Source of the DNA: Bacilli bacterium
GTDB taxonomy: Bacteria > Bacillota_I > Bacilli_A > RFN20 > CAG-826
Direction of reading: 5' to 3'
Assembly (NCBI GenBank): GCA_041653015.1
Contig: JBAZGG010000006.1
Coordinates: 574 to 64,573, forward strand
DNA length: 64,000 nt
The position numbers and the translations under genes were made by a program. Below the pieces are notes generated by a model. It was not told where the DNA came from. It ran no database searches and was given only the letters and a program-made list of their open reading frames with translations. Below, in pieces: positions 4,927 to 14,631 of this stretch (position 1 is the first letter of the stretch; each line of letters opens with the position of its first letter).

Positions 4927-5014
4927 GCCCGAGTGGTGAAATTGGTAGACGCACTGGACTCAAAATCCAGCGAGTGTTGAACTCATACCGGTTCAAGTCC
5001 GGTCTCGGGCACCA
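4927..5014 (+). tRNA. tRNA-Leu(CAA)
   Basis: Acceptor stem GCCCGAG/CTCGGGC, anticodon loop CTCAAAA (CAA), long variable arm (type II), genomically encoded CCA. Confidence 0.85.
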
Positions 5015-5146
5015 GCTCAATTAATTTGAATTCATTCATTAGGTTGAATTTTAGGTCTGGTTATATGAAAATCAAGTGTTTTGTTGCTTATAATTATTTC
5101 CTTTGCTATGCGTTAATTGTATTAATTGAAAAATAGAGAACTTATT

Positions 5147-5656
5147 ATGAAAAATAAAATGAGCACACAAACAATTATATGCGTTCTGTGTTTGCCAATA
5201 TCGTGTCTCCTGTTTAGCTGCCGTCGGCCTAATCCTATTTTAGAACAGTACTCTGATTTTCTTCATGTTGAAAATATGCTCGAGTATTGTCTGACTTATG
5301 GTGTTTATAATGGCGAAGGCAAGTTTTATCTTGATGGTAACACTCGCTTTGATGATGTTGTTGTGGATGATGGGCGACTTTGTTCCGCTCTTTTATCTTT
5401 AAAACTCGTTGAAACGGCCGTTGATATACAAGATAGTTCAATGGAAAATCTGACAAGGCTAGTTAATTATTATGTTCCATTTGATGATTACGCGTATGTC
5501 GTAGTATATGAAGGCGACATTTTAGGTTGCGAAATTTATCCCGACCTATCCATTCCATATTGCAGATATTTCGATTTAGAAAGAGGAAAAGCGCTGGAAT
5601 TGTACACATTAGCGGTAGATGTTCGCGACGATGCTAATCAAAAACAAATCCATTGA
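5147..5656 (+). CDS. Hypothetical secreted protein or lipoprotein
   Basis: Signal peptide with LLFSC. The ORF in the track begins at a TTG (5126); an internal ATG at 5147 is the more plausible start. Confidence 0.4.
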   Translation: MKNKMSTQTIICVLCLPISCLLFSCRRPNPILEQYSDFLHVENMLEYCLTYGVYNGEGKFYLDGNTRFDDVVVDDGRLCSALLSLKLVETAVDIQDSSMENLTRLVNYYVPFDDYAYVVVYEGDILGCEIYPDLSIPYCRYFDLERGKALELYTLAVDVRDDANQKQIH

Positions 5657-7467
5657 TCATATGTTAATTTTTCTCAACAGTATGTCCGTTTATTCACTTG
5701 ATGCATTGCATTAGAATTGACAATAAATAACTTATAATTCTTCGAAGACCATTGACTTTGAATAGCTATAATTTTCAAATTATTAAAATCGTCTCTGCAA
5801 CGCGTAATCCGCATCAATCGTTTAATATTACGGATTTCTTCATATTAATATGAAAGTATCGTGAAGGTGTCGAAAACGTAATGGTTTTACAACTTTAAGG
5901 AATTGAACTTGCTAGGTTAACAAATTGGCTAATGTTAATCGCACATGAAGGTAGTGGTCGTGTAATTTCATGCAAGTTCATCACATTATAAAAGTTATGA
6001 TGATGGACGTTGACGATTAAAAGCGTTATTAACTTACAAACTATATCTCGTTCTTACATATACCATTACACATGAAAACATAACTTGTGAATGACTTAGA
6101 ATTAACGAAACTAAGTTTGATAAAAAGAAACTTTTTCGTCGTATTAATTTCTTTCTTTGATGCGTTATTATATATATGAAAACGATGGTATTTTTGTATA
6201 CTAATTTCTATTTCGAAATCCACCAAATGATTTTGTGATAGAGTTACTCAAAAAGGACGTTCATTGTTTTCCTTCTCAACTGGTTATTAACGAATTACAA
6301 AGCTAAAACAAGAGAAGAATAATTAGTTCGTATGAACAAATTAAAGAGGCATTAAAAAACAAATACTGCGACATATAGTTTAGCATCGAGAGCAAAACAG
6401 ATGCTGACAAAGCTTGTATTGAAAGTGACAAAGAGATTACTCATAACATGAAATTATTATCGACATGCAAGATTAACAAACCATGATTGACGCACTATTT
6501 TGTAGAAACGCTGTGAAAATTCCTCTGTTTGAAAAAAACGAAAAAGCAAGATATAAATGGTTCAACGATACCCATTATCTGGGTTATTTTTTTGAATTAT
6601 TGTTTGACATATAAAATGATTTCAAAAACTACATTTTTATTACTTTGGACAATTGTTTTTGAATCATCATCAAAACTAGAATGTGAATTCAAGAAAATTG
6701 TAGACAGAAATATTGAAATTTTATCGTTCGGCTCAGTTCAGAAATCATTAAAATGCTTCTCAATTGAAGAAAGAATAGATTCCGAAGTTGTCACGAGGAA
6801 GGATTTGTCCCAAGAAATTTGAAAGTTATTGAAATTAACGAAAATATATCAACTTAATTTCACGATTGTATTTTCAATTTATTTTCTTCAGAAATTGAAA
6901 TATCTTGGGAGAAAAATTTCGAAAACAATATTACCATATATAAAGCATCTTTCGATGACATTATTTGCCAACTTTCTCTATCAAAAAAAATCAGCTTGCA
7001 TTTTTTCTCATGTTAATTTAGCGAATTAATTGAACGAAATGGAAATTGAAGTAAAACTATTTATTTAATCGAAATTAAAGTTTTCAATAATTTCATATCA
7101 TTATGAGAAAAAGCAAAAAAACAACGGGCAATCTTTGTTGGTTCCTTTTATTGAATATTTCGAAGCCACAATCAATCAATCCCTCAAGCCTAAAGAACTA
7201 GTGTAAGACACAGATGATCCACCATTTTAATCTCTGATATATATTTGATTAATCTAGTTCAAAAACTGCACCAATCCACATTTAATCAAAGATTTCGATT
7301 TTTTAAAATCTCCAATTGTGTTTTTGACATTTTTGACTATTCAGAGAAACTTTGCATCGGCGTATATATGGGTGCTAAACATATTATTCTGCAAGTAATG
7401 CGATGAATAATGCGATACTCTCTTTTCTCTTGCAAATTTGTTATATACTATTTATAAGGATTGATAT

Positions 7468-8838
7468 ATGTTTTCAAAATATAAAAGTATTCATGAAGCG
7501 ATGCTGTTGGTTTATGAAGAATTAGAGAAAATAATTAAAAAGAACAAAATTACGGAGATATCAAGATCAAAGGAAATCGAAATAATTTGGAACTCGCTTT
7601 GTTTATCTTTTAGTTCCTATGCCCGTGATATTAACGTTTTTTTAGAGAATCTTGATAAAACGTATGATTCAGTAATGCCAAAATATGACTTTTTGGTGGC
7701 ATTTCTGTGGTTCTATGATAAAGAACGTTTATTCGCTCCTTTGAATGACAAGTTTAAATATAAAAATTTGGCATTCTCAGGCACCTATAGCAAAAGCACT
7801 ATTGAAGAAGGAATTCGAATTCGTGATTACTTCATTTTGCCAATAATTCATAGTGAAATAAAGGGCAAACTTATTAACAATTACGAAAAAATTGTTAGCA
7901 AAACCGTTCACGAGAAAAATATCATAAATAGATTTCTATTGAATTATTCAATTGTAAAAAACAAAGATAATCTGATTTCTTTGAAAACAATTGAGATGCA
8001 CAAATTTGTTGAGCGTATCAAAAGTAATGGATTGAAAGTAGCTCTAAATCCTATAGCATATAAAAACTTTGAATACTATTTTACGATGATAACTCACGTG
8101 AATCCATGCCCGTCTTTCTCCGTGAAAGTTGTTGAAGACCATGAAAAAGAATTAATTAATGTTTTTTCAGATTCATTGAACAAAAGCGTGGCCAAGGGTG
8201 TTGATCTTATTATATTTCCCGAAATGCATTTGACTACAAAATTGCTTGAGCAAATACCATCTATGATAAAGTACTTGAAAATAGAAAGACAAAGTTTAAT
8301 CATGGTAGGTACTCTATCGAATGAAACCTCCAACATGGCTTATTTATTTGATAACTATGGTAATTTAGTTTTAAAACAAAAAAAATATGGACAGTTTCTT
8401 TTGAGGGATCCTAATAATATAAACATCTCTTATGTCGAGGGCAGAGAATGGAATGATGCCGAAGATGTTTTGCTAGCTTTGCTAGACATAGTTGATTTCG
8501 GAAGAATGTCAATTTTTATTTGCAAAGATATTTATGAACCTAAAAAAAAGGATGCATTAATCAATTGTTCGGTTGATTTTCTTTTAATGCCATCATATTC
8601 TGAATCAAATTCAATCTCTGATTGTTTAAATGACTTAGCAAAATCGAGGGTAATTAGTTTTTTTGTGAATTCTTTTAATGCTTTTCTAAAAAAGAAAGAA
8701 AACATCGAAAAAATTCTTGGCAAAGTTGTATTGCCGTATTGGGATGAATGGCACAAGCAGAAATTTGTTGAGCATGTTTTGAATCCAAAAATCACGCGAA
8801 TTGAAAGAGGCAGCCTGACTATCGATTTAATTCTTTGA
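7468..8838 (+). CDS. Two-domain protein: an unknown N-terminal domain of about 230 aa fused to a carbon-nitrogen hydrolase (nitrilase-superfamily) domain
   Basis: The C-terminal half carries the E-K-C catalytic triad context of CN-hydrolases: DLIIFPEM (Glu), LVLKQKKYGQF (Lys), MSIFICKDIYEP (Cys). The N-terminal half has no recognisable motif. Confidence 0.55.
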   Translation: MFSKYKSIHEAMLLVYEELEKIIKKNKITEISRSKEIEIIWNSLCLSFSSYARDINVFLENLDKTYDSVMPKYDFLVAFLWFYDKERLFAPLNDKFKYKNLAFSGTYSKSTIEEGIRIRDYFILPIIHSEIKGKLINNYEKIVSKTVHEKNIINRFLLNYSIVKNKDNLISLKTIEMHKFVERIKSNGLKVALNPIAYKNFEYYFTMITHVNPCPSFSVKVVEDHEKELINVFSDSLNKSVAKGVDLIIFPEMHLTTKLLEQIPSMIKYLKIERQSLIMVGTLSNETSNMAYLFDNYGNLVLKQKKYGQFLLRDPNNINISYVEGREWNDAEDVLLALLDIVDFGRMSIFICKDIYEPKKKDALINCSVDFLLMPSYSESNSISDCLNDLAKSRVISFFVNSFNAFLKKKENIEKILGKVVLPYWDEWHKQKFVEHVLNPKITRIERGSLTIDLIL

Positions 8839-8940
8839 CTCTTTTCCACATATCCTATATTGCATTTATTTGAAATCTATGATTGTTCATGATATTATTA
8901 CAATGTGAATGAACAATGATGAACTAATGAGGAAAAGAAT

Positions 8941-9669
8941 ATGACGAGAGTAAAAATTGATTTAAATAGAAAAATTGATGTATTAAGACAAAGAGTTTTG
9001 GATTTTGTGCTATTGGATAAGAGAGACAGCGACGCTGATTATGAAAAACTCGTCTACTCTATTCAAGAGATTGAATTAAGCCGAGATGACGAGTTCGAGA
9101 AAGGCTACCTAAAATGCTTAGCTGATATATTGACCGCAAAAGATATTTTCGATACGGATACAAAGATTTTTGTTGACATTAGCAAACACCAGAATTCTGC
9201 AGCACTTGTTAGTTTATTGGCAGAGCATAATTCTCTTGGGCATCAAGAACTTGCAGAAAAACTTAAATTGTCCAAACAAGGACTCTCCAATCTTATAAAA
9301 GCTTTGTCCGAAACAAGAATTACTGACGAATGGAAAGTAGGAAGAAGCAAAATTTATTCTTTGACAAAAAAAGGTTTCTTGTTTTTGGAATGGTATGATT
9401 TGAATAATAAGAAATTATTGTTGGAGAAAAACAGCGCGTGGTTTGAATGGTTGAAAGATAAATTTGAGCCGTCTGCTGTTGTCGATAATCACGTCCCAAA
9501 TTTTGCAAAAGTTGAACCAGATAAGAGTTTTATTAACGCTAAGTGTGTGCTTAATCGAATTATAGAAAATGAGAATTCGCAAATTATTGATATTAGGGGT
9601 CAAGATTCAACGTTATATAAAGATGGTAATAAATTGCTGCTTAGTATGGCTTTGGGAGGAGAAAGATGA
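8941..9669 (+). CDS. Winged-helix (MarR/PadR-like) DNA-binding protein
   Basis: Central HTH segment LGHQELAEKLKLSKQGLSNLIKALSE, followed by a wing (WKVGRSKIYSLTKKG). Overlaps the downstream GIY-YIG gene by 4 nt. Confidence 0.5.
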   Translation: MTRVKIDLNRKIDVLRQRVLDFVLLDKRDSDADYEKLVYSIQEIELSRDDEFEKGYLKCLADILTAKDIFDTDTKIFVDISKHQNSAALVSLLAEHNSLGHQELAEKLKLSKQGLSNLIKALSETRITDEWKVGRSKIYSLTKKGFLFLEWYDLNNKKLLLEKNSAWFEWLKDKFEPSAVVDNHVPNFAKVEPDKSFINAKCVLNRIIENENSQIIDIRGQDSTLYKDGNKLLLSMALGGER

Positions 9670-10094
9670 AACAAGAATACTATTTAAAATTTAATGATTA
9701 TGTCGAGAATCCAAAAAATCTTCCAAGTGTGTCAGGAATATATTTAATTCGTAAGACAAAAAGAAAAAATGACGGGACCTTATCAGTTGAGTTATTGTAC
9801 GTAGGCAAAGCAGAAAACTTGAATGATAGATTTTCAGATCCAAACAAACACGAAGGATATGTCAAAGCTCAAAAATTATGTTCAAATTCAAAAGATAATT
9901 CGTATGTTTCAATTTCGTATGCCGAATGCCCAAAAAATAGTCTTGATAGAGTTGAGGCTTGTCTCATTTATACTAGCAAACCCAAACTCAACACTTTTAA
10001 TACAAAAACATTTGATTACGATGCAACCACTGTGTATGTTGGCGGTATAAGAAAGTCGAGCCTTGATAATATTAATGTCGCACAAAAAAAATAG
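9666..10094 (+). CDS. GIY-YIG domain nuclease
   Basis: GIY-YIG motifs SGIYLIR ... LYVGKAENLNDRF ... conserved Glu (VEACLIY) ... Asn. The 142-aa size is typical of standalone GIY-YIG effectors. Confidence 0.6.
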   Translation: MKQEYYLKFNDYVENPKNLPSVSGIYLIRKTKRKNDGTLSVELLYVGKAENLNDRFSDPNKHEGYVKAQKLCSNSKDNSYVSISYAECPKNSLDRVEACLIYTSKPKLNTFNTKTFDYDATTVYVGGIRKSSLDNINVAQKK

Positions 10095-10745
10095 CGTCAA
10101 ATACGTAGCTCTGTTCTATATTACTTGTGCTGTATCCATCTTTTATTTTTGAAAATAAGCACATTTTTGATTCCAAATCGTTTTTTTAAGTAAATTCTTT
10201 TTTTGTTTTATATTGATTTTATACTAATTGTGCACCGAAAAGTTTCTTATAAATGATGTTAGTCAACCTATCAAGAAAATTAGGAATGCGGAATAAAACT
10301 AATTTACTGGATTGAATTGAGATAACTCATCCCGTTTAATGCGATTTAATAAAATCGCAAAGTGCGTATGAAAAATCTAGAATCGTCTTGATTGAAATCA
10401 TCAAAACTGTCAAACGTACATTAAGAATTTTTTCAAACATACACTGAAACCTTAAAGAAGAGTGAAACTTTGAGTAGAATGTTTGTGCTAATGTGTTAGC
10501 GTTTGTGAAAGAAAATGGATAATGAAACCCATGAGTCTATTGCTAATAATAATTGCAATCTAACTTTTTAATTAAGTAGATTGAGTCGACAACAAACCTT
10601 TAAGAAAATGATTTTTCGATGCAACAATATAAAGAAAAATAGTGGGGAGTCGTTGTTTTTTATTTGGATGTTTTCGTCACTATGTTAAAATAACATTCAA
10701 TATCATCACGAATAATTTATACAACTCAAAAGAAGGGATTTAGAT

Positions 10746-11384
10746 ATGTACGAATTTGTTTCTAAAAACGAATTAAAGCCCGTTAAAGCAAAAATTGATT
10801 TGATAATTAGAAATCTTCAGCGACTATTAAAACAAGACAAAATAACATTTAAATCTATTCTTGTCGGTAGCGCAAAGAAACATCTTGTCACAAGATTAGT
10901 GGATGGGAATAAGGGATTTGATTTCGATTATAATTTGTCACTTCAAAAATGCCCAGATAATATTTCTCCAAAAGAGCTTAAAACACTTTTTCTTAGTAGG
11001 TTAAATATCGTACTAGAAGATAGTGGATATAAAAAAGCCGAAAACAATACACAATCAATGACCATCAAGTTTCTTGATTCTAGAAATAGCAGAATTATTC
11101 ATTCTTGTGACATTGCTATTGTCAGCGATCATGAGGAAGAAGGAGAGACGTTTCAAAAGATACTGATTTTCGACAAATCGAATAAAAAATATATTTGGAA
11201 TAAACGGCCACTCGTGAAGAATTATTCCGCAAAATTATCAAGCATACTCAGCAATGGCTTGTGGCATGAGGTTAAAGAAGAATATTTAAATCTAAAGAAC
11301 ACTAACAATGATTCTGAAAAGAAATCATTTCAACTGTATCTGGAAGCTCTAAACAACGTGTACAACCATTATGACTGGAATTAA
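10746..11384 (+). CDS. Polβ-superfamily nucleotidyltransferase (SMODS/CD-NTase-like or MNT-like)
   Basis: GS...DxD active-site pattern (VGSAKKHLVTRLVDGNKGFDFDYNL) plus a third acidic residue on a later strand (HSCDIAIV). RBS AAGAAGGGA upstream. Confidence 0.55.
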   Translation: MYEFVSKNELKPVKAKIDLIIRNLQRLLKQDKITFKSILVGSAKKHLVTRLVDGNKGFDFDYNLSLQKCPDNISPKELKTLFLSRLNIVLEDSGYKKAENNTQSMTIKFLDSRNSRIIHSCDIAIVSDHEEEGETFQKILIFDKSNKKYIWNKRPLVKNYSAKLSSILSNGLWHEVKEEYLNLKNTNNDSEKKSFQLYLEALNNVYNHYDWN

Positions 11385-12099
11385 AGCAAAAAAACTTTCT
11401 TTGAATCTTTCAAAGGATGAATTCATTAAAAAAATGATTTTTCATACGGATGATGAAATTGAAAGATGTAAGAAGTACCTAGACTTGAAAGGCGTTGAAT
11501 ATCATATTGTACTTGCTAATTTTATTGGGTTGAATAACCATGGGAAGGTGGAATATAAGAAGGTTTCGTGCCTTTATCAATACGATAAAAGGATTCGAAA
11601 TATTCTTTACAAATATATATCTGCCTTTGAAGAAAGTATAAGAGCGTTTATATGCAATAAATATAGCCAAACAATTGATTCGTTCAAGAAAATTAGTGAA
11701 TCAATATGCGAAAGAATAAGCAGAGGTGGCAGTTTATCTCGTGAACTTGAAGATTTGGATTTAGGCAAGCTTTTGAATCTTGCTAAGAAGCTTTCGGCCG
11801 AAGAAAAAAGTAGATTGTTTGGCAAAACTGAAAAACTATCTGAAAACCTGAATGCAGTTAGGGAGTTGCGGAATGCAGTAAGTCATCATCGGCTACTATT
11901 CATTTATGAAGACTTTGAGACATGCTTTATCGATGGTAAAGAACTTGATTCCTTGCAAGCAAACATACTCAATCTTTATAAATTGATTAATCCCTATTAT
12001 CAAGAGTTTTTCAAAATAGCAATAAACGATGCGATTAAAGCCGACGATGATAGAGAATTTACAAACGCTATTCCAAAGACAGCTATTATTCGCATATGA
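11371..12099 (+). CDS. Abi_2 (AbiD/AbiF-like) HEPN-domain protein
   Basis: Rx4H HEPN motif in the Abi_2 context ELRNAVSHHRLLF. Overlaps the upstream nucleotidyltransferase by 14 nt (translational coupling). Confidence 0.55.
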   Translation: MTGIKAKKLSLNLSKDEFIKKMIFHTDDEIERCKKYLDLKGVEYHIVLANFIGLNNHGKVEYKKVSCLYQYDKRIRNILYKYISAFEESIRAFICNKYSQTIDSFKKISESICERISRGGSLSRELEDLDLGKLLNLAKKLSAEEKSRLFGKTEKLSENLNAVRELRNAVSHHRLLFIYEDFETCFIDGKELDSLQANILNLYKLINPYYQEFFKIAINDAIKADDDREFTNAIPKTAIIRI

Positions 12100-12211
12100 A
12101 AAAATATTGAAAGAATATGTTTATGTATAGGATGTCGGTTAAGAAGCCAAAAAGAGCGAAGAACAAAAATTTAAGGGTACTGATCGCGAGGCATATAATA
12201 CTGCTGGAAAA

Positions 12212-12760
12212 ATGCCGACAGCAAAATTTAGGAGTGTTGCTTACCATTTTGAAAAGTTGCGACACTCTTTGTCTTGTTTCAAACACAAAGAAATCCCAAC
12301 AATAAAGAAAATACAAATAAGCAATATCTCGAAATATACTCGTATGAAGAAATCTAAAAAATTGAAATACTTTGTCAAACGGAGATCCACAATAGTGGAA
12401 ACACCTGATTTTATTTCGCATGCAACAAAAAGAGTTATATTTAAGATTAGTCGGAAAATAGAAAAAATAATAATTCAATCCCTTTTTACAACAACAGAAA
12501 TAAATGCTATTTTCGTCATATATAAGACCATTAGAATAATTGTCGCCACAAAAAAGGTTATTGTGTCATTAGAAGGTTTTGTTAAAAATATCAGTCATAC
12601 AAGAGAATTCTTTACGTATTCTGAGGACGGACACTATGAAATCCTGGATGATTTAAAATCATTTTTAATAACACTTCAGTCAGGCAAAGAATTTGTCGAT
12701 AATATGAAGAAATTGTGCCAAACTATTGGATTAAAATACGAGCCTTTCAAGAAATCGTAG
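12212..12760 (+). CDS. Hypothetical Lys-rich protein (uncertain)
   Basis: ORF only, no motif. It overlaps an antisense ORF (12086-12478), so its reality is uncertain. Confidence 0.25.
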   Translation: MPTAKFRSVAYHFEKLRHSLSCFKHKEIPTIKKIQISNISKYTRMKKSKKLKYFVKRRSTIVETPDFISHATKRVIFKISRKIEKIIIQSLFTTTEINAIFVIYKTIRIIVATKKVIVSLEGFVKNISHTREFFTYSEDGHYEILDDLKSFLITLQSGKEFVDNMKKLCQTIGLKYEPFKKS

Positions 12761-13248
12761 CGAGCTTCAGATGTAACAAGCATAGTCAATACTATCTAAT
12801 TATTTTGAATCATTTTTATATCCAATATGTTAGTTATTTGATTGCGGAAATATGATAAATGAACGATTGAAGTTGACAAAATGCACATTATAAATACCAC
12901 GTTTCTTAATCTACACTTTTCGCTATGATTGATGGCTGTTGGCGGATCATTGCTGCTAACAGTTGTTCGCCACTTTGATCATAAATCACAGACACATTGT
13001 CTATAACACTTTGATTGAAGGCATCTTTGCCTTAATTAACTCAGTGCTTTTTAATTGCCCATAAACCTACGCCGAGTGGGAAAAGTTGTTAAAATGTTTT
13101 TCCTATGTTAAATAATGAAATCATGTGAATGCCAATGGTTGTACAACATCAAATTTGATATCTATTAATGTAAACGTTGCTAAATTTAGATTTTATGTTT
13201 ACAAAATGAGTTAAGCAATAATATACTTGAAAAAGAATAGGAGTATTT

Positions 13249-13848
13249 ATGAAAAATCAAAAGAGTATTTTAACGATTACCGCTCTAGCTCTTTTATGTA
13301 TCCCGATTGGCAAAATTCTCATCGACACAGGTCACATCTCTTTGATCGATGGTGCGAATGCTGATATCACAAAATATACAGTTCGACTCGATTCGACCAA
13401 TACGCCATCATTTTTAGGTGAGAGCTCTCTCGGATCAAATGAAATGGCAACGCCTAGTCGAAGTGTTCCATGGGTATATTACTCTGGATCTCGCACTTAT
13501 CCAGGCGCTCATATGGCCGTCGGTGATCTCTTGACTGGCTCGCAACAATTTACTTCTAGCTCTGTGAATTTTACTGGTGCGATCAGCGTGACGATCGATT
13601 GGACCTTGCTCAACGATTTGAATCCGCACGATGTTTCTGTGATGCTTTACAGACCCGGAGTCTATCCGATGAATATTTTATATTTCGATGGATTAACCTC
13701 TCCTCATACCTTTACGAGAACGGATATGGGCGCCGCTTATAAATCTCTTCATATCGGTCTTCAATTTTTCACGAATGAATCCGCTCCTGATGCGATTTTC
13801 GTCCTAAACTCTCTTGAAGTGGTGTACGACTGTATTCCCGTTTCTTAA
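13249..13848 (+). CDS. Secreted protein, paralog A of a duplicated family
   Basis: Signal peptide, then conserved blocks shared with the convergent ORF 14017-14631: YTxRLDSTNTPxFL, TPSRSVxW, LTSPHTFTRxD, AIFVLNxLEVVYDCIP. Confidence 0.55.
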   Translation: MKNQKSILTITALALLCIPIGKILIDTGHISLIDGANADITKYTVRLDSTNTPSFLGESSLGSNEMATPSRSVPWVYYSGSRTYPGAHMAVGDLLTGSQQFTSSSVNFTGAISVTIDWTLLNDLNPHDVSVMLYRPGVYPMNILYFDGLTSPHTFTRTDMGAAYKSLHIGLQFFTNESAPDAIFVLNSLEVVYDCIPVS

Positions 13849-14016: not shown

Positions 14017-14631
14017 CTAAGCAGCGGGAATGCAGTCGTAAACAATCTCTAAATAATTGAGAACGAAGATTGCATTTGGTGCGCCGATATCTGCTTGAAC
14101 CTGCAATACCATCTGAAGCGATGAATAGGGATCGCCGATATCGGCTCTTGTAAAAGTGTGAGGTGATGTCAGCCCATTAAGATTCAAATAAGTTGGAGGA
14201 ATAATAAATTCTCCTCCAACAGGATAGCAATTCATATTGATATTGCTTCCAGTTAAACCATTGAGAGCCATCCAGCTGACTGGTATGCTCAAGACACCAG
14301 TGATGGGAATGCTGGCATTGTTTCCTAAACTTCGAACACTAGCTAAATCTGTCATAGCGAGGTGCGCTTCAGGATATGATGTCATCCCTGTTTCATATGA
14401 CCACACGACGCTACGACTTGGTGTTGAAAATAGATATGATCCAGTAGGAAGTGGCTCCTCGCTCAAAAATTCTGGAGTGTTGGTCGAGTCTAGTCTAATG
14501 GTGTATTCGGTTAATTTTGCCCCTGCCATATCCGCGACAGAGAAGTGACTCGTATCGACGAAAAGAAGAGCTAATGGGATGCACAAAGCGATCAGACCAT
14601 TAGCCACAAAAAACCATTTTTGTTTTTTCAT
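14017..14631 (-). CDS. Secreted protein, paralog B
   Basis: Same conserved blocks as 13249-13848. Convergent orientation, with a hairpin (CCGCT...AGCGG) between the two stop codons. Confidence 0.55.
   Translation of the reverse strand: MKKQKWFFVANGLIALCIPLALLFVDTSHFSVADMAGAKLTEYTIRLDSTNTPEFLSEEPLPTGSYLFSTPSRSVVWSYETGMTSYPEAHLAMTDLASVRSLGNNASIPITGVLSIPVSWMALNGLTGSNINMNCYPVGGEFIIPPTYLNLNGLTSPHTFTRADIGDPYSSLQMVLQVQADIGAPNAIFVLNYLEIVYDCIPAA

Follow-up and report, generated by a model that had tools for sequence, protein, structure and literature searches.

INTRODUCTION

How is an AbiF-type HEPN ribonuclease controlled when the gene coupled to it on the upstream side encodes a nucleotidyltransferase (NTase)? 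The question is raised by a two-gene locus in a 64,000-nt stretch of a 71-kb Bacilli bacterium MAG contig (JBAZGG010000006.1), the window analysed here. AbiF/Abi_2 proteins are among the most abundant single-gene defence annotations and belong to the lineage from which Cas13 evolved. Their regulation by a cis-encoded non-coding RNA (ncRNA) was worked out only in 2025.

Canonical AbiF or AbiD-F is a type III toxin–antitoxin (TA) system, whose ncRNA (abiF motif, Rfam RF03085) lies just upstream of the toxin gene. The RNA binds the HEPN dimer and blocks its non-specific toxic RNase activity; AbiF-type RNases are active by default and the bound RNA inhibits rather than activates them (PMC13064643, PMC12737573, PMC12373285).

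As far as we found, the present locus is an apparently undescribed AbiF-family toxin system, with an enzymatic protein partner replacing the RNA antitoxin. The first-pass annotation had called the pairing undescribed, and the searchable literature gave no description of it, while an earlier mention may exist in the primary AbiF–Cas13 paper. The Abi2 contexts given in a 2013 HEPN survey are R-M and ParB/HNH only, and a 2025 neighbourhood survey of abiF gives broad functional categories only.

RESULTS

The pair and its surroundings

Both open reading frames were recovered with the positions and lengths first assigned to them, as was their 14-nt overlap, where the junction reads ...CATT ATG ACT GGA ATT AA... 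(Table 1). In the annotation of the source contig, gene A is hypothetical and gene B an 'Abi family protein'. The pair lies within a low-GC stretch of ~29–33% GC against 38–44% in the flanks. This stretch comes after a tRNA-Leu gene (4927–5014) and splits a block of polysaccharide-synthesis genes.

Nothing convincing was found in the way of att-type direct repeats or an integrase bounding the low-GC island. Promoter and terminator consensus scans gave counts at the background level and were uninformative. The NTase/HEPN module is small, 1.35 kb.

Table 1. Features of the NTase/HEPN locus, numbered from the first nucleotide of the window
Feature	Position	Strand	Remark
Non-coding gap 5′ of the pair, 651 nt	10095..10745	.	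No Rfam family, no terminator-like site
Shine-Dalgarno of the NTase gene, AGAAGGGA	10731..10738	+	Duplex dG −8.1 kcal/mol
Gene A, miniature CD-NTase-like nucleotidyltransferase, 212 aa	10746..11384	+	Predicted from motifs, structure model and fold searches
GS motif of the NTase, G41-S42	10866..10871	+	Invariant in all homologue sets
Metal-binding DxD of the NTase, D59-F-D61	10920..10928	+	GS-x16-DxD spacing; invariant in all sets
Third catalytic aspartate of the NTase, D122	11109..11111	+	HSCD motif; invariant in all sets
Gene B, AbiF-like (Abi_2) HEPN ribonuclease, 242 aa	11371..12099	+	Predicted toxic effector
14-nt overlap of NTase 3′ end and HEPN start	11371..11384	+	Translational-coupling junction; HEPN without Shine-Dalgarno
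N-terminal Abi_2 signature, Y71-D-K-R-I-R76	11581..11598	+	Aligns to YRFDKKLR of PbAbiF (8vz6)
HEPN R-phi-xxx-H catalytic motif, R167-N-A-V-S-H172	11869..11886	+	Within ELRNAVSHH; H+2 is R174, not Tyr

Gene B is a short AbiF-type HEPN protein

The Abi_2 family suggested at first for gene B is confirmed by a match to PF07751 with E 4e-11 and 43.9 bits (gathering score 25.6). Further matches are to PADLOC AbiD (1e-7) and to phrog_2158, 'abortive infection resistance protein' (2.8e-9). The predicted structure has the AbiF fold with the HEPN R-N-xxx-H catalytic dyad and is covered almost wholly by the AbiF core. Against PbAbiF, 206 of the 242 residues align at 17% identity and gene B is ~55 aa shorter. 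It has no SAVED, CARF, STING or other sensor domain, its matches being to Abi_2/AbiD only.

The HEPN motif read from the sequence also stands, since R167, N168 and H172 are kept in 37/37 homologues, and it aligns to RNSCCH (R210/H215) of PbAbiF. Position 174 is Arg in 34 homologues and Lys in the other 3. In the N-terminal signature, Y71, D72, K73 and R76 are invariant among the 37 unique pairs. Y62 and Y80 are, with Y71, the other invariant tyrosines and Y36 is nearly invariant. Gene B is a member of Abi_2/AbiF in a shorter subfamily distinct from canonical AbiF.

Gene A is an NTase recognised by its motifs and predicted fold

NTP_transf_2 (PF01909) and SMODS (PF18144), the profiles proposed for gene A in the first-pass annotation, give no match even at E ≤ 1. 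There is no family-level match in Pfam, NCBIfam, PADLOC or PHROGs, and an HMM search of PDB sequences returned nothing significant. The best sequence signals, and the only ones, are sub-threshold N-terminal matches to CBASS cyclase models, namely NF041116 (E 2.6e-4, 20 bits against a cut-off of 200) and PADLOC Cyclase (E 3e-3).

The structure is predicted with confidence (pLDDT 90.5) and all best matches of the model in fold searches are CBASS cyclases, with CD-NTases ranked above TUTases in both searches. The protein is 80–150 residues shorter than typical CD-NTases. The NTase active-site signature first claimed for it is fully conserved: GS, DxD and D122 are invariant in 37/37 paired, 32/32 unpaired and 32/32 phage-borne homologues. 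As the 37 unique pairs have diverged to ~23% identity, the invariant motifs of the NTase and the HEPN are not chance matches.

Motifs, confident structure prediction and fold searches together are the ground for calling gene A an NTase. By its model it is an active-looking enzyme of the pol-beta superfamily, CD-NTase-like rather than MNT-like, and the CD-NTase relationship appears at the fold level only. Clustered at 50% identity, its family has ~1,100 representatives, and none of Pfam, PHROG and PADLOC has an entry dedicated to it. The 150 best representatives include no NTase-HEPN fusion, which could have argued for physical interaction; the double-length members are NTase-NTase tandems.

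The antitoxin RNA of AbiF is missing

No abiF RNA or other Rfam family was detected at E ≤ 1 in positions 5000–13500 of the window. The abiF RNA was also absent from 14 related loci at the gathering score and from 11 more at E ≤ 1. In the positive control, phage phiC2, RF03085 was found 75 nt upstream of abiF with 37.6 bits. A hidden abiF-type ncRNA was rejected because none was detected in the 651-nt gap or in the 25 related loci.

This gap is not conserved, being only 4–140 nt in most homologous loci and often just 4–40 nt. Immediately upstream of the HEPN gene there is, here and in most loci, no room for an ncRNA, since the NTase coding sequence overlaps the HEPN start. A very divergent RNA inside the coding sequence is conceivable. 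The position expected of the antitoxin RNA is taken by the NTase gene, and this is the most informative feature of the locus.

The pair is conserved and co-inherited

A HEPN profile search with one genome per species gave 34 loci, which are the best-scoring subset of the matches. The NTase gene is immediately adjacent on the same strand in 32 of these 34, with the NTase first in 27 and the HEPN first in 5. Of the remaining two, one stops at a contig end and the other is a gene fragment. The best-scoring 34 include no orphan HEPN, and the subfamily is always NTase-linked in that sample. Conservation in other genomes, the point on which the first-pass annotation let its reading depend, is thus observed.

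The hosts are Mycoplasmatota/Acholeplasmataceae, Bacilli, several Clostridia orders, one Spirochaetales MAG and one Elusimicrobiaceae MAG. Of 37 unique full-length pairs, 34 have the NTase first at a spacing of −32 to +9 nt; 26 of the 34 overlap, most commonly by −14 nt as in the window. The two proteins co-diverge down to ~23% identity across the 37 pairs (Mantel r 0.90, reached in 0/2000 permutations). Both enzymes are selected for catalysis and inherited as a unit.

The genes around the pairs are variable and rich in defence and mobility functions. They comprise serine recombinases, R-M components, AAA_14/DUF4143, DUF3800, PDC-S01 and Mokosh genes as well as an RT-protease/SLFN-helicase/nSTAND island. 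Such company and the conservation across phyla support the original claim of a defence module. No conserved third gene emerged when neighbours were clustered and 129 flanking proteins were scanned in bulk with Pfam and PADLOC; NERD is a recurrent neighbour, yet in a minority of loci.

Near a reversed-order pair (L025/L033), the PHROG matches were to regulators, methyltransferases and unknowns only. Genes in the related loci were called by a simple ORF caller with table 11, and a Mycoplasmataceae locus (L044) appears fragmented, probably owing to genetic code 4.

The HEPN start mostly lacks a Shine-Dalgarno

A strong Shine-Dalgarno precedes the NTase start in 91% of the pairs, with a median duplex dG of −9.3 kcal/mol over 34 pairs. 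At the HEPN start one is present in 3%, with a median dG of −1.6 and −1.9 in the window. The NTase Shine-Dalgarno is the stronger in 31/34 pairs (p = 6e-7).

The absence of a Shine-Dalgarno at the HEPN start, which overlaps the NTase end, marks the overlap as a translational-coupling junction and bears out the coupling first proposed. With a strong site at the NTase and none at the HEPN, HEPN synthesis probably depends entirely on ribosomes that have just finished the NTase, and probably yields less protein. Coupled downstream genes without Shine-Dalgarno occur in ordinary operons too.

Solitary NTases are common, also in phages

The sample comprised 63 NTase lineages. A HEPN partner accompanies 31 of them; in the other 32, which have none, all catalytic residues are retained. 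Midpoint rooting of an NJ tree, which carries no support values, puts paired clades on both sides of the root, with the unpaired NTases lying between them and enclosing the reversed-order pairs. The paired clades on both sides suggest, within the limits of this crude tree, that HEPN pairing is ancestral in the NTase family.

Most unpaired NTases are solitary. A few adjoin other nucleases, namely NERD with a Zn-ribbon in two or three lineages, a PLD-type nuclease and DUF5677, and one locus (L013) has NERD and the Zn-ribbon together with the HEPN. Some related NTases adjoin NUDIX hydrolases.

In IMG/VR, 41 viral contigs carry the NTase, 8 with the full pair and 33 as a solitary NTase in genuine phage genomes. 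IMG/VR contigs may include host flanks; the phage NTases cited here directly adjoin phage hallmark genes. Some directly follow the terminase large or small subunit gene, while others directly precede a ParB-DNA-methyltransferase fusion or stand beside an integrase or tape-measure gene. A HEPN tblastn search against GenBank phages gave no match, whereas IMG/VR contains the pair.

The full-length phage NTases (n = 32) are all catalytically intact, and 31 of them are 51–66% identical to the NTase of a HEPN-paired gut Eubacteriales host system. As intact solitary copies are common, phages included, and no such fold match was obtained, a MenT/AbiEii-like toxin was rejected as the identity of the NTase.

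DISCUSSION

A possible enzymatic antitoxin

We tentatively favour a two-gene abortive-infection or TA-like module, in which the NTase acts as an enzymatic antitoxin and its oligonucleotide replaces the AbiF ncRNA. Gene B would be an AbiF-type HEPN ribonuclease serving as a toxic effector and gene A its antitoxin enzyme or 'guard'. The NTase would make a short oligonucleotide from NTPs (or dNTPs) without a template. This product would lodge in the groove of the HEPN dimer that binds RNA and holds the active site, as the AbiFr ncRNA does in canonical AbiF.

The HEPN would be translated only after the NTase, and the guard would always come first and in excess because the HEPN gene lacks its own ribosome-binding site and overlaps the NTase stop. 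Infection may cut the supply of the product by host shut-off, nucleotide depletion, a phage nuclease or a phage inhibitor. The freed RNase would then degrade RNA and the infection would be aborted. The solitary intact NTases of phages may be antitoxin mimics for counter-defence.

We infer the direction of regulation from NTase to HEPN, and more than one line of evidence speaks for negative, TA-like control. The default state of AbiF-type RNases is active, and the antitoxin RNA is lost exactly where the NTase appears. The NTase-first layout, the HEPN start without Shine-Dalgarno, the lack of an orphan HEPN among the loci listed and the phages carrying the NTase alone point in the same direction. 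The asymmetry between solitary NTases and no solitary HEPN rests on only 32 loci. Negative regulation of the HEPN by the NTase, by whatever chemistry, has slightly better than even prospects.

Some observations speak against the guard. The HEPN, ~55 aa shorter than PbAbiF and 17% identical to it, may bind RNA differently from AbiF or lack its constitutive activity. The solitary NTases are numerous and diversified (32/63 lineages), which suggests a separate function; outside phages, it is not obvious how an antitoxin role would account for it. NTase-HEPN fusions, too, were absent from the 150 best family representatives.

Activation instead of inhibition

The NTase might instead be silent until infection and then make a cyclic or linear second messenger that activates the HEPN RNase for abortive infection, in the manner of CBASS or OAS-RNase L. 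We regard this as doubtful, though it is the main rival. CD-NTases are best known for making activating signals once infection has switched them on, and the activation of HEPN RNases by oligoadenylates is well established for Csm6/Csx1 and RNase L. The best fold matches of the NTase are all CBASS cyclases, and all the sequence signals it gives fall on models of such cyclases. The fold similarity favours activation at least as much as the guard.

The neighbourhood of the NTases points the same way. The pair is in a defence-island context, and the nucleases beside related NTases (NERD in three lineages, PLD and DUF5677) look like CBASS-style effector swapping, which counts against the guard. The NUDIX neighbours could be signal-degrading enzymes.

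Against activation, the HEPN consists of the AbiF core only, with no sensor domain such as SAVED, CARF or STING to receive a signal, and AbiF-type RNases are default-active and inhibited by bound RNA. The gene order, the HEPN start without Shine-Dalgarno and no orphan HEPN among the loci listed fit a safety layout. Phage solitary NTases that are intact and 51–66% identical to a paired one are hard to square with an activator of host suicide. Moreover, the NTase is 80–150 residues short of typical CD-NTases and reaches 20 bits where the cut-off is 200.

As in Type I CBASS, an NTase of cGAS/DncV-like fold shares a two-gene operon with a nuclease-type effector, and the setting is one of defence islands and prophages. 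The NTase, however, resembles CD-NTases in its predicted fold only, being ~100 aa smaller and below every CD-NTase and SMODS sequence threshold. The effector lacks a recognisable nucleotide-sensing domain and belongs to no known Cap effector family; we know of no HEPN/AbiF effector among the described CBASS systems. The gene layout, too, suggests negative rather than positive control. With a CD-NTase-like fold predicted, the sequence threshold missed and the effector's sensor domain lacking, the locus is not a demonstrable CBASS.

Covalent neutralisation

Alternatively, the NTase could transfer one or more NMPs onto a HEPN side chain, as in type VII TA systems, and the RNase would stay inactive until ATP falls or the modification is removed. 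We consider this unlikely. Every argument for negative regulation by the guard applies equally here. HepT/MntA shares both the logic and the gene order, with the NTase first, overlapping genes and the NTase catalytic residues required (PMC13000451). The invariant HEPN tyrosines Y62, Y71 and Y80, and the nearly invariant Y36, could be the acceptors.

The HepT toxin has the motif R-phi-xxx-H-x-Y, in which the Tyr is the oligoAMPylation site (PMC13000451). This HxY acceptor tyrosine is absent here, with Arg or Lys in 37/37, so the pair is not a HepT/MntA (type VII) member. Neither is the NTase a minimal NTP_transf_2-type MNT antitoxin with GSx10DxD. Its fold class, that of primer-independent oligonucleotide synthases, and its GSx16DxD spacing, with the missing acceptor, favour the guard over covalent neutralisation.

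As in HepT/MntA, a pol-beta-superfamily NTase with conserved catalytic residues lies directly upstream of, and overlaps, a HEPN RNase with R-phi-xxx-H, and the likely logic is an enzyme that keeps the RNase off. The HEPN/MNT analogy drawn in the first-pass annotation does not extend to family membership, as the NTase is CD-NTase-like, the HEPN is AbiF-like and the AMPylated tyrosine is missing.

RNA ends and chance adjacency

The NTase may instead tail or mark RNAs, as a TUTase- or MenT-like enzyme, and so generate or protect substrates of the HEPN, or it may repair or tag the cleavage products; the two enzymes would work together on one RNA target, with no mutual regulation. This is quite improbable, as it leaves unexplained what restrains a default-active AbiF-type toxin after the loss of the ncRNA. 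CD-NTases outrank TUTases in both fold searches. Toxicity would also be expected of an RNA-modifying NTase like MenT or AbiEii, whereas solitary copies are widespread and occur in phages too.

A chance neighbourhood of two genes without functional connection, or the decay of one into a pseudogene, might be suggested by the half of the sampled NTase lineages without a HEPN partner, but it is effectively refuted by the co-occurrence data (adjacency in 32/34 best-scoring HEPN loci; Mantel r 0.90, 0/2000 permutations), the conserved overlaps, the invariant catalytic residues and the otherwise variable flanking genes.

Relation to known systems

With AbiF/AbiD-F (Abi_2, PF07751), the type III TA systems and Cas13 precursors, gene B shares the Abi_2 domain, the AbiF fold and the HEPN dyad. 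The locus is not a canonical type III AbiF since the RF03085 ncRNA is absent. There is usually no intergenic room for it, and a coupled NTase gene stands upstream instead. The HEPN is shorter as well, ~242 against ~300 aa, and forms a distinct subfamily that is NTase-linked in all the loci sampled.

Hailong (HalB NTase with the HalA ion channel) and Panoptes (mCpol with its effector) resemble the guard in the proposed mechanism only, a constitutive nucleotide product holding a toxic partner off until infection removes it. By that analogy, Hailong would be its direct precedent. The effector here is a soluble HEPN RNase rather than a HalA-type membrane channel, and HalB is absent among the fold matches listed. 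OAS-RNase L of animals and Csm6/Csx1 of type III CRISPR likewise combine an oligonucleotide-synthesising NTase or polymerase with a HEPN-type RNase. Theirs, however, are ligand-activated through sensing domains (ankyrin repeats, CARF), of which the present HEPN has none.

Implications for AbiF control and annotation

In evolutionary terms, an AbiF-type RNase may have swapped its encoded RNA antitoxin for an enzyme making an inhibitory oligonucleotide on demand, with phages carrying stand-alone copies for counter-defence. Taken as a whole, this scenario is possible and rather unlikely. If it is true, the system would be a 'manufactured antitoxin', a hybrid of type III TA and Hailong-like guard systems. 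The copies in gut-Firmicutes temperate phages, beside anti-restriction methyltransferases, would then keep the host RNase off.

If the guard operates as proposed, it would join Hailong and Panoptes among the defences that depend on constitutive nucleotide synthesis, and the NTases carried by phages would form a new class of anti-defence gene. The NTase-linked subfamily would show a second way of controlling AbiF RNases. Among the cGAS/DncV-like NTases, the family would form a new and very small branch for which no family model exists. With the HEPN annotated as an 'Abi family protein' and the NTase as 'hypothetical', this two-gene system is miscounted as a single-gene Abi.

Solitary NTases of the phages

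The phage genomes among the homologous loci (L135-L166) carry solitary homologues of the NTase, the CD-NTase-like member of the NTase-HEPN pair, with the catalytic residues intact. Each of these homologues has a terminase gene, for the large or the small subunit, immediately on its 5′ side, and a ParB-DNA methyltransferase fusion follows immediately on the 3′ side. In 31 of the 32 full-length phage copies, the identity to the NTase of one HEPN-paired host system is 51–66%. The solitary phage NTase may be a counter-defence gene, an antitoxin mimic.

Tandem NTases and adjoining enzymes

Four family representatives without genomic context (P0105, P0112, P0127 and P0142; 376–444 aa) are tandem NTase-NTase fusions, in which the N-terminal copy is the more divergent one. 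These fusions hint that the NTase works as a dimer or pseudodimer.

In three distinct lineages of the NTase, the gene immediately 5′ of it encodes a NERD-family nuclease, and NERD may be an alternative or extra effector. NUDIX hydrolase genes recur just downstream of, or near, family NTases, where they might break down the NTase product.

Surroundings of the pairs

A ~160-aa protein with an HExxH-like motif (FHESRHAFQW) recurs 5′ of six pairs, and serine recombinases are often near it; this recurrence and proximity suggest that the pair is carried by integrative elements belonging to a related family. At L011, the homologous pair sits inside a dense defence island.

In the window, three co-directional genes upstream of the pair share its low-GC island and may form a second, uncharacterised defence module. 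Between them and the NTase gene is an AT-rich non-coding gap, which has neither an Rfam match nor an ORF and has no counterpart upstream of the NTase in the homologous loci. It could be a promoter or regulatory region, or the scar of a lost gene.

Downstream of the pair, the 182-aa candidate ORF has no family match, and neither it nor the antisense candidate has a conserved homologue next to other pairs. Farther on, two convergent paralogues belong to no Pfam family; both have N-terminal signal- or TM-like segments and a common C-terminus, ...VYDCIP.

Features around the family NTases and the pair
Feature	Position	Remark
NERD-family nuclease	L013:3747-4316	HEPN also present
NERD-family nuclease	L060:3979-4905	C-terminal topoisomerase-type Zn ribbon
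NERD-family nuclease	L100/L117	~88 nt upstream of NTase
NUDIX hydrolase	L090:5652-6107; also L016, L027	within 2 kb at L016 and L027
Solitary phage NTases (examples)	L144:3992-4630; L136:3938-4630; L152:3893-4657; L160:3989-4660
456-aa protein	within window 7468-10094	faint carbon-nitrogen hydrolase signal only
242-aa winged-helix protein	within window 7468-10094	resembles Csa3/CasR-type HTH regulators
142-aa GIY-YIG nuclease	within window 7468-10094	overlapping gene
Non-coding gap	window 10095-10745	651 nt
Candidate ORF, 182 aa	window 12212-12760 (+)	112 nt downstream of HEPN gene
Candidate antisense ORF, 130 aa	window 12086-12478	overlaps 182-aa ORF
Paralogues, ~200 aa	window 13249-13848 (+); 14017-14631 (-)	convergent
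Defence island	L011:175-5982 and 7546-12660	SLFN-like helicase, reverse-transcriptase-trypsin fusion, QueC-like protein, LRR protein, UvrD/nSTAND-type ATPase
HExxH-like protein	L001, L013, L016, L027, L051, L056	34-2,700 nt upstream of pair

At L044, from an uncultured Mycoplasmataceae, both NTase and HEPN seem fragmented under translation table 11, which is probably an artefact of genetic code 4 (UGA = Trp) rather than gene decay.
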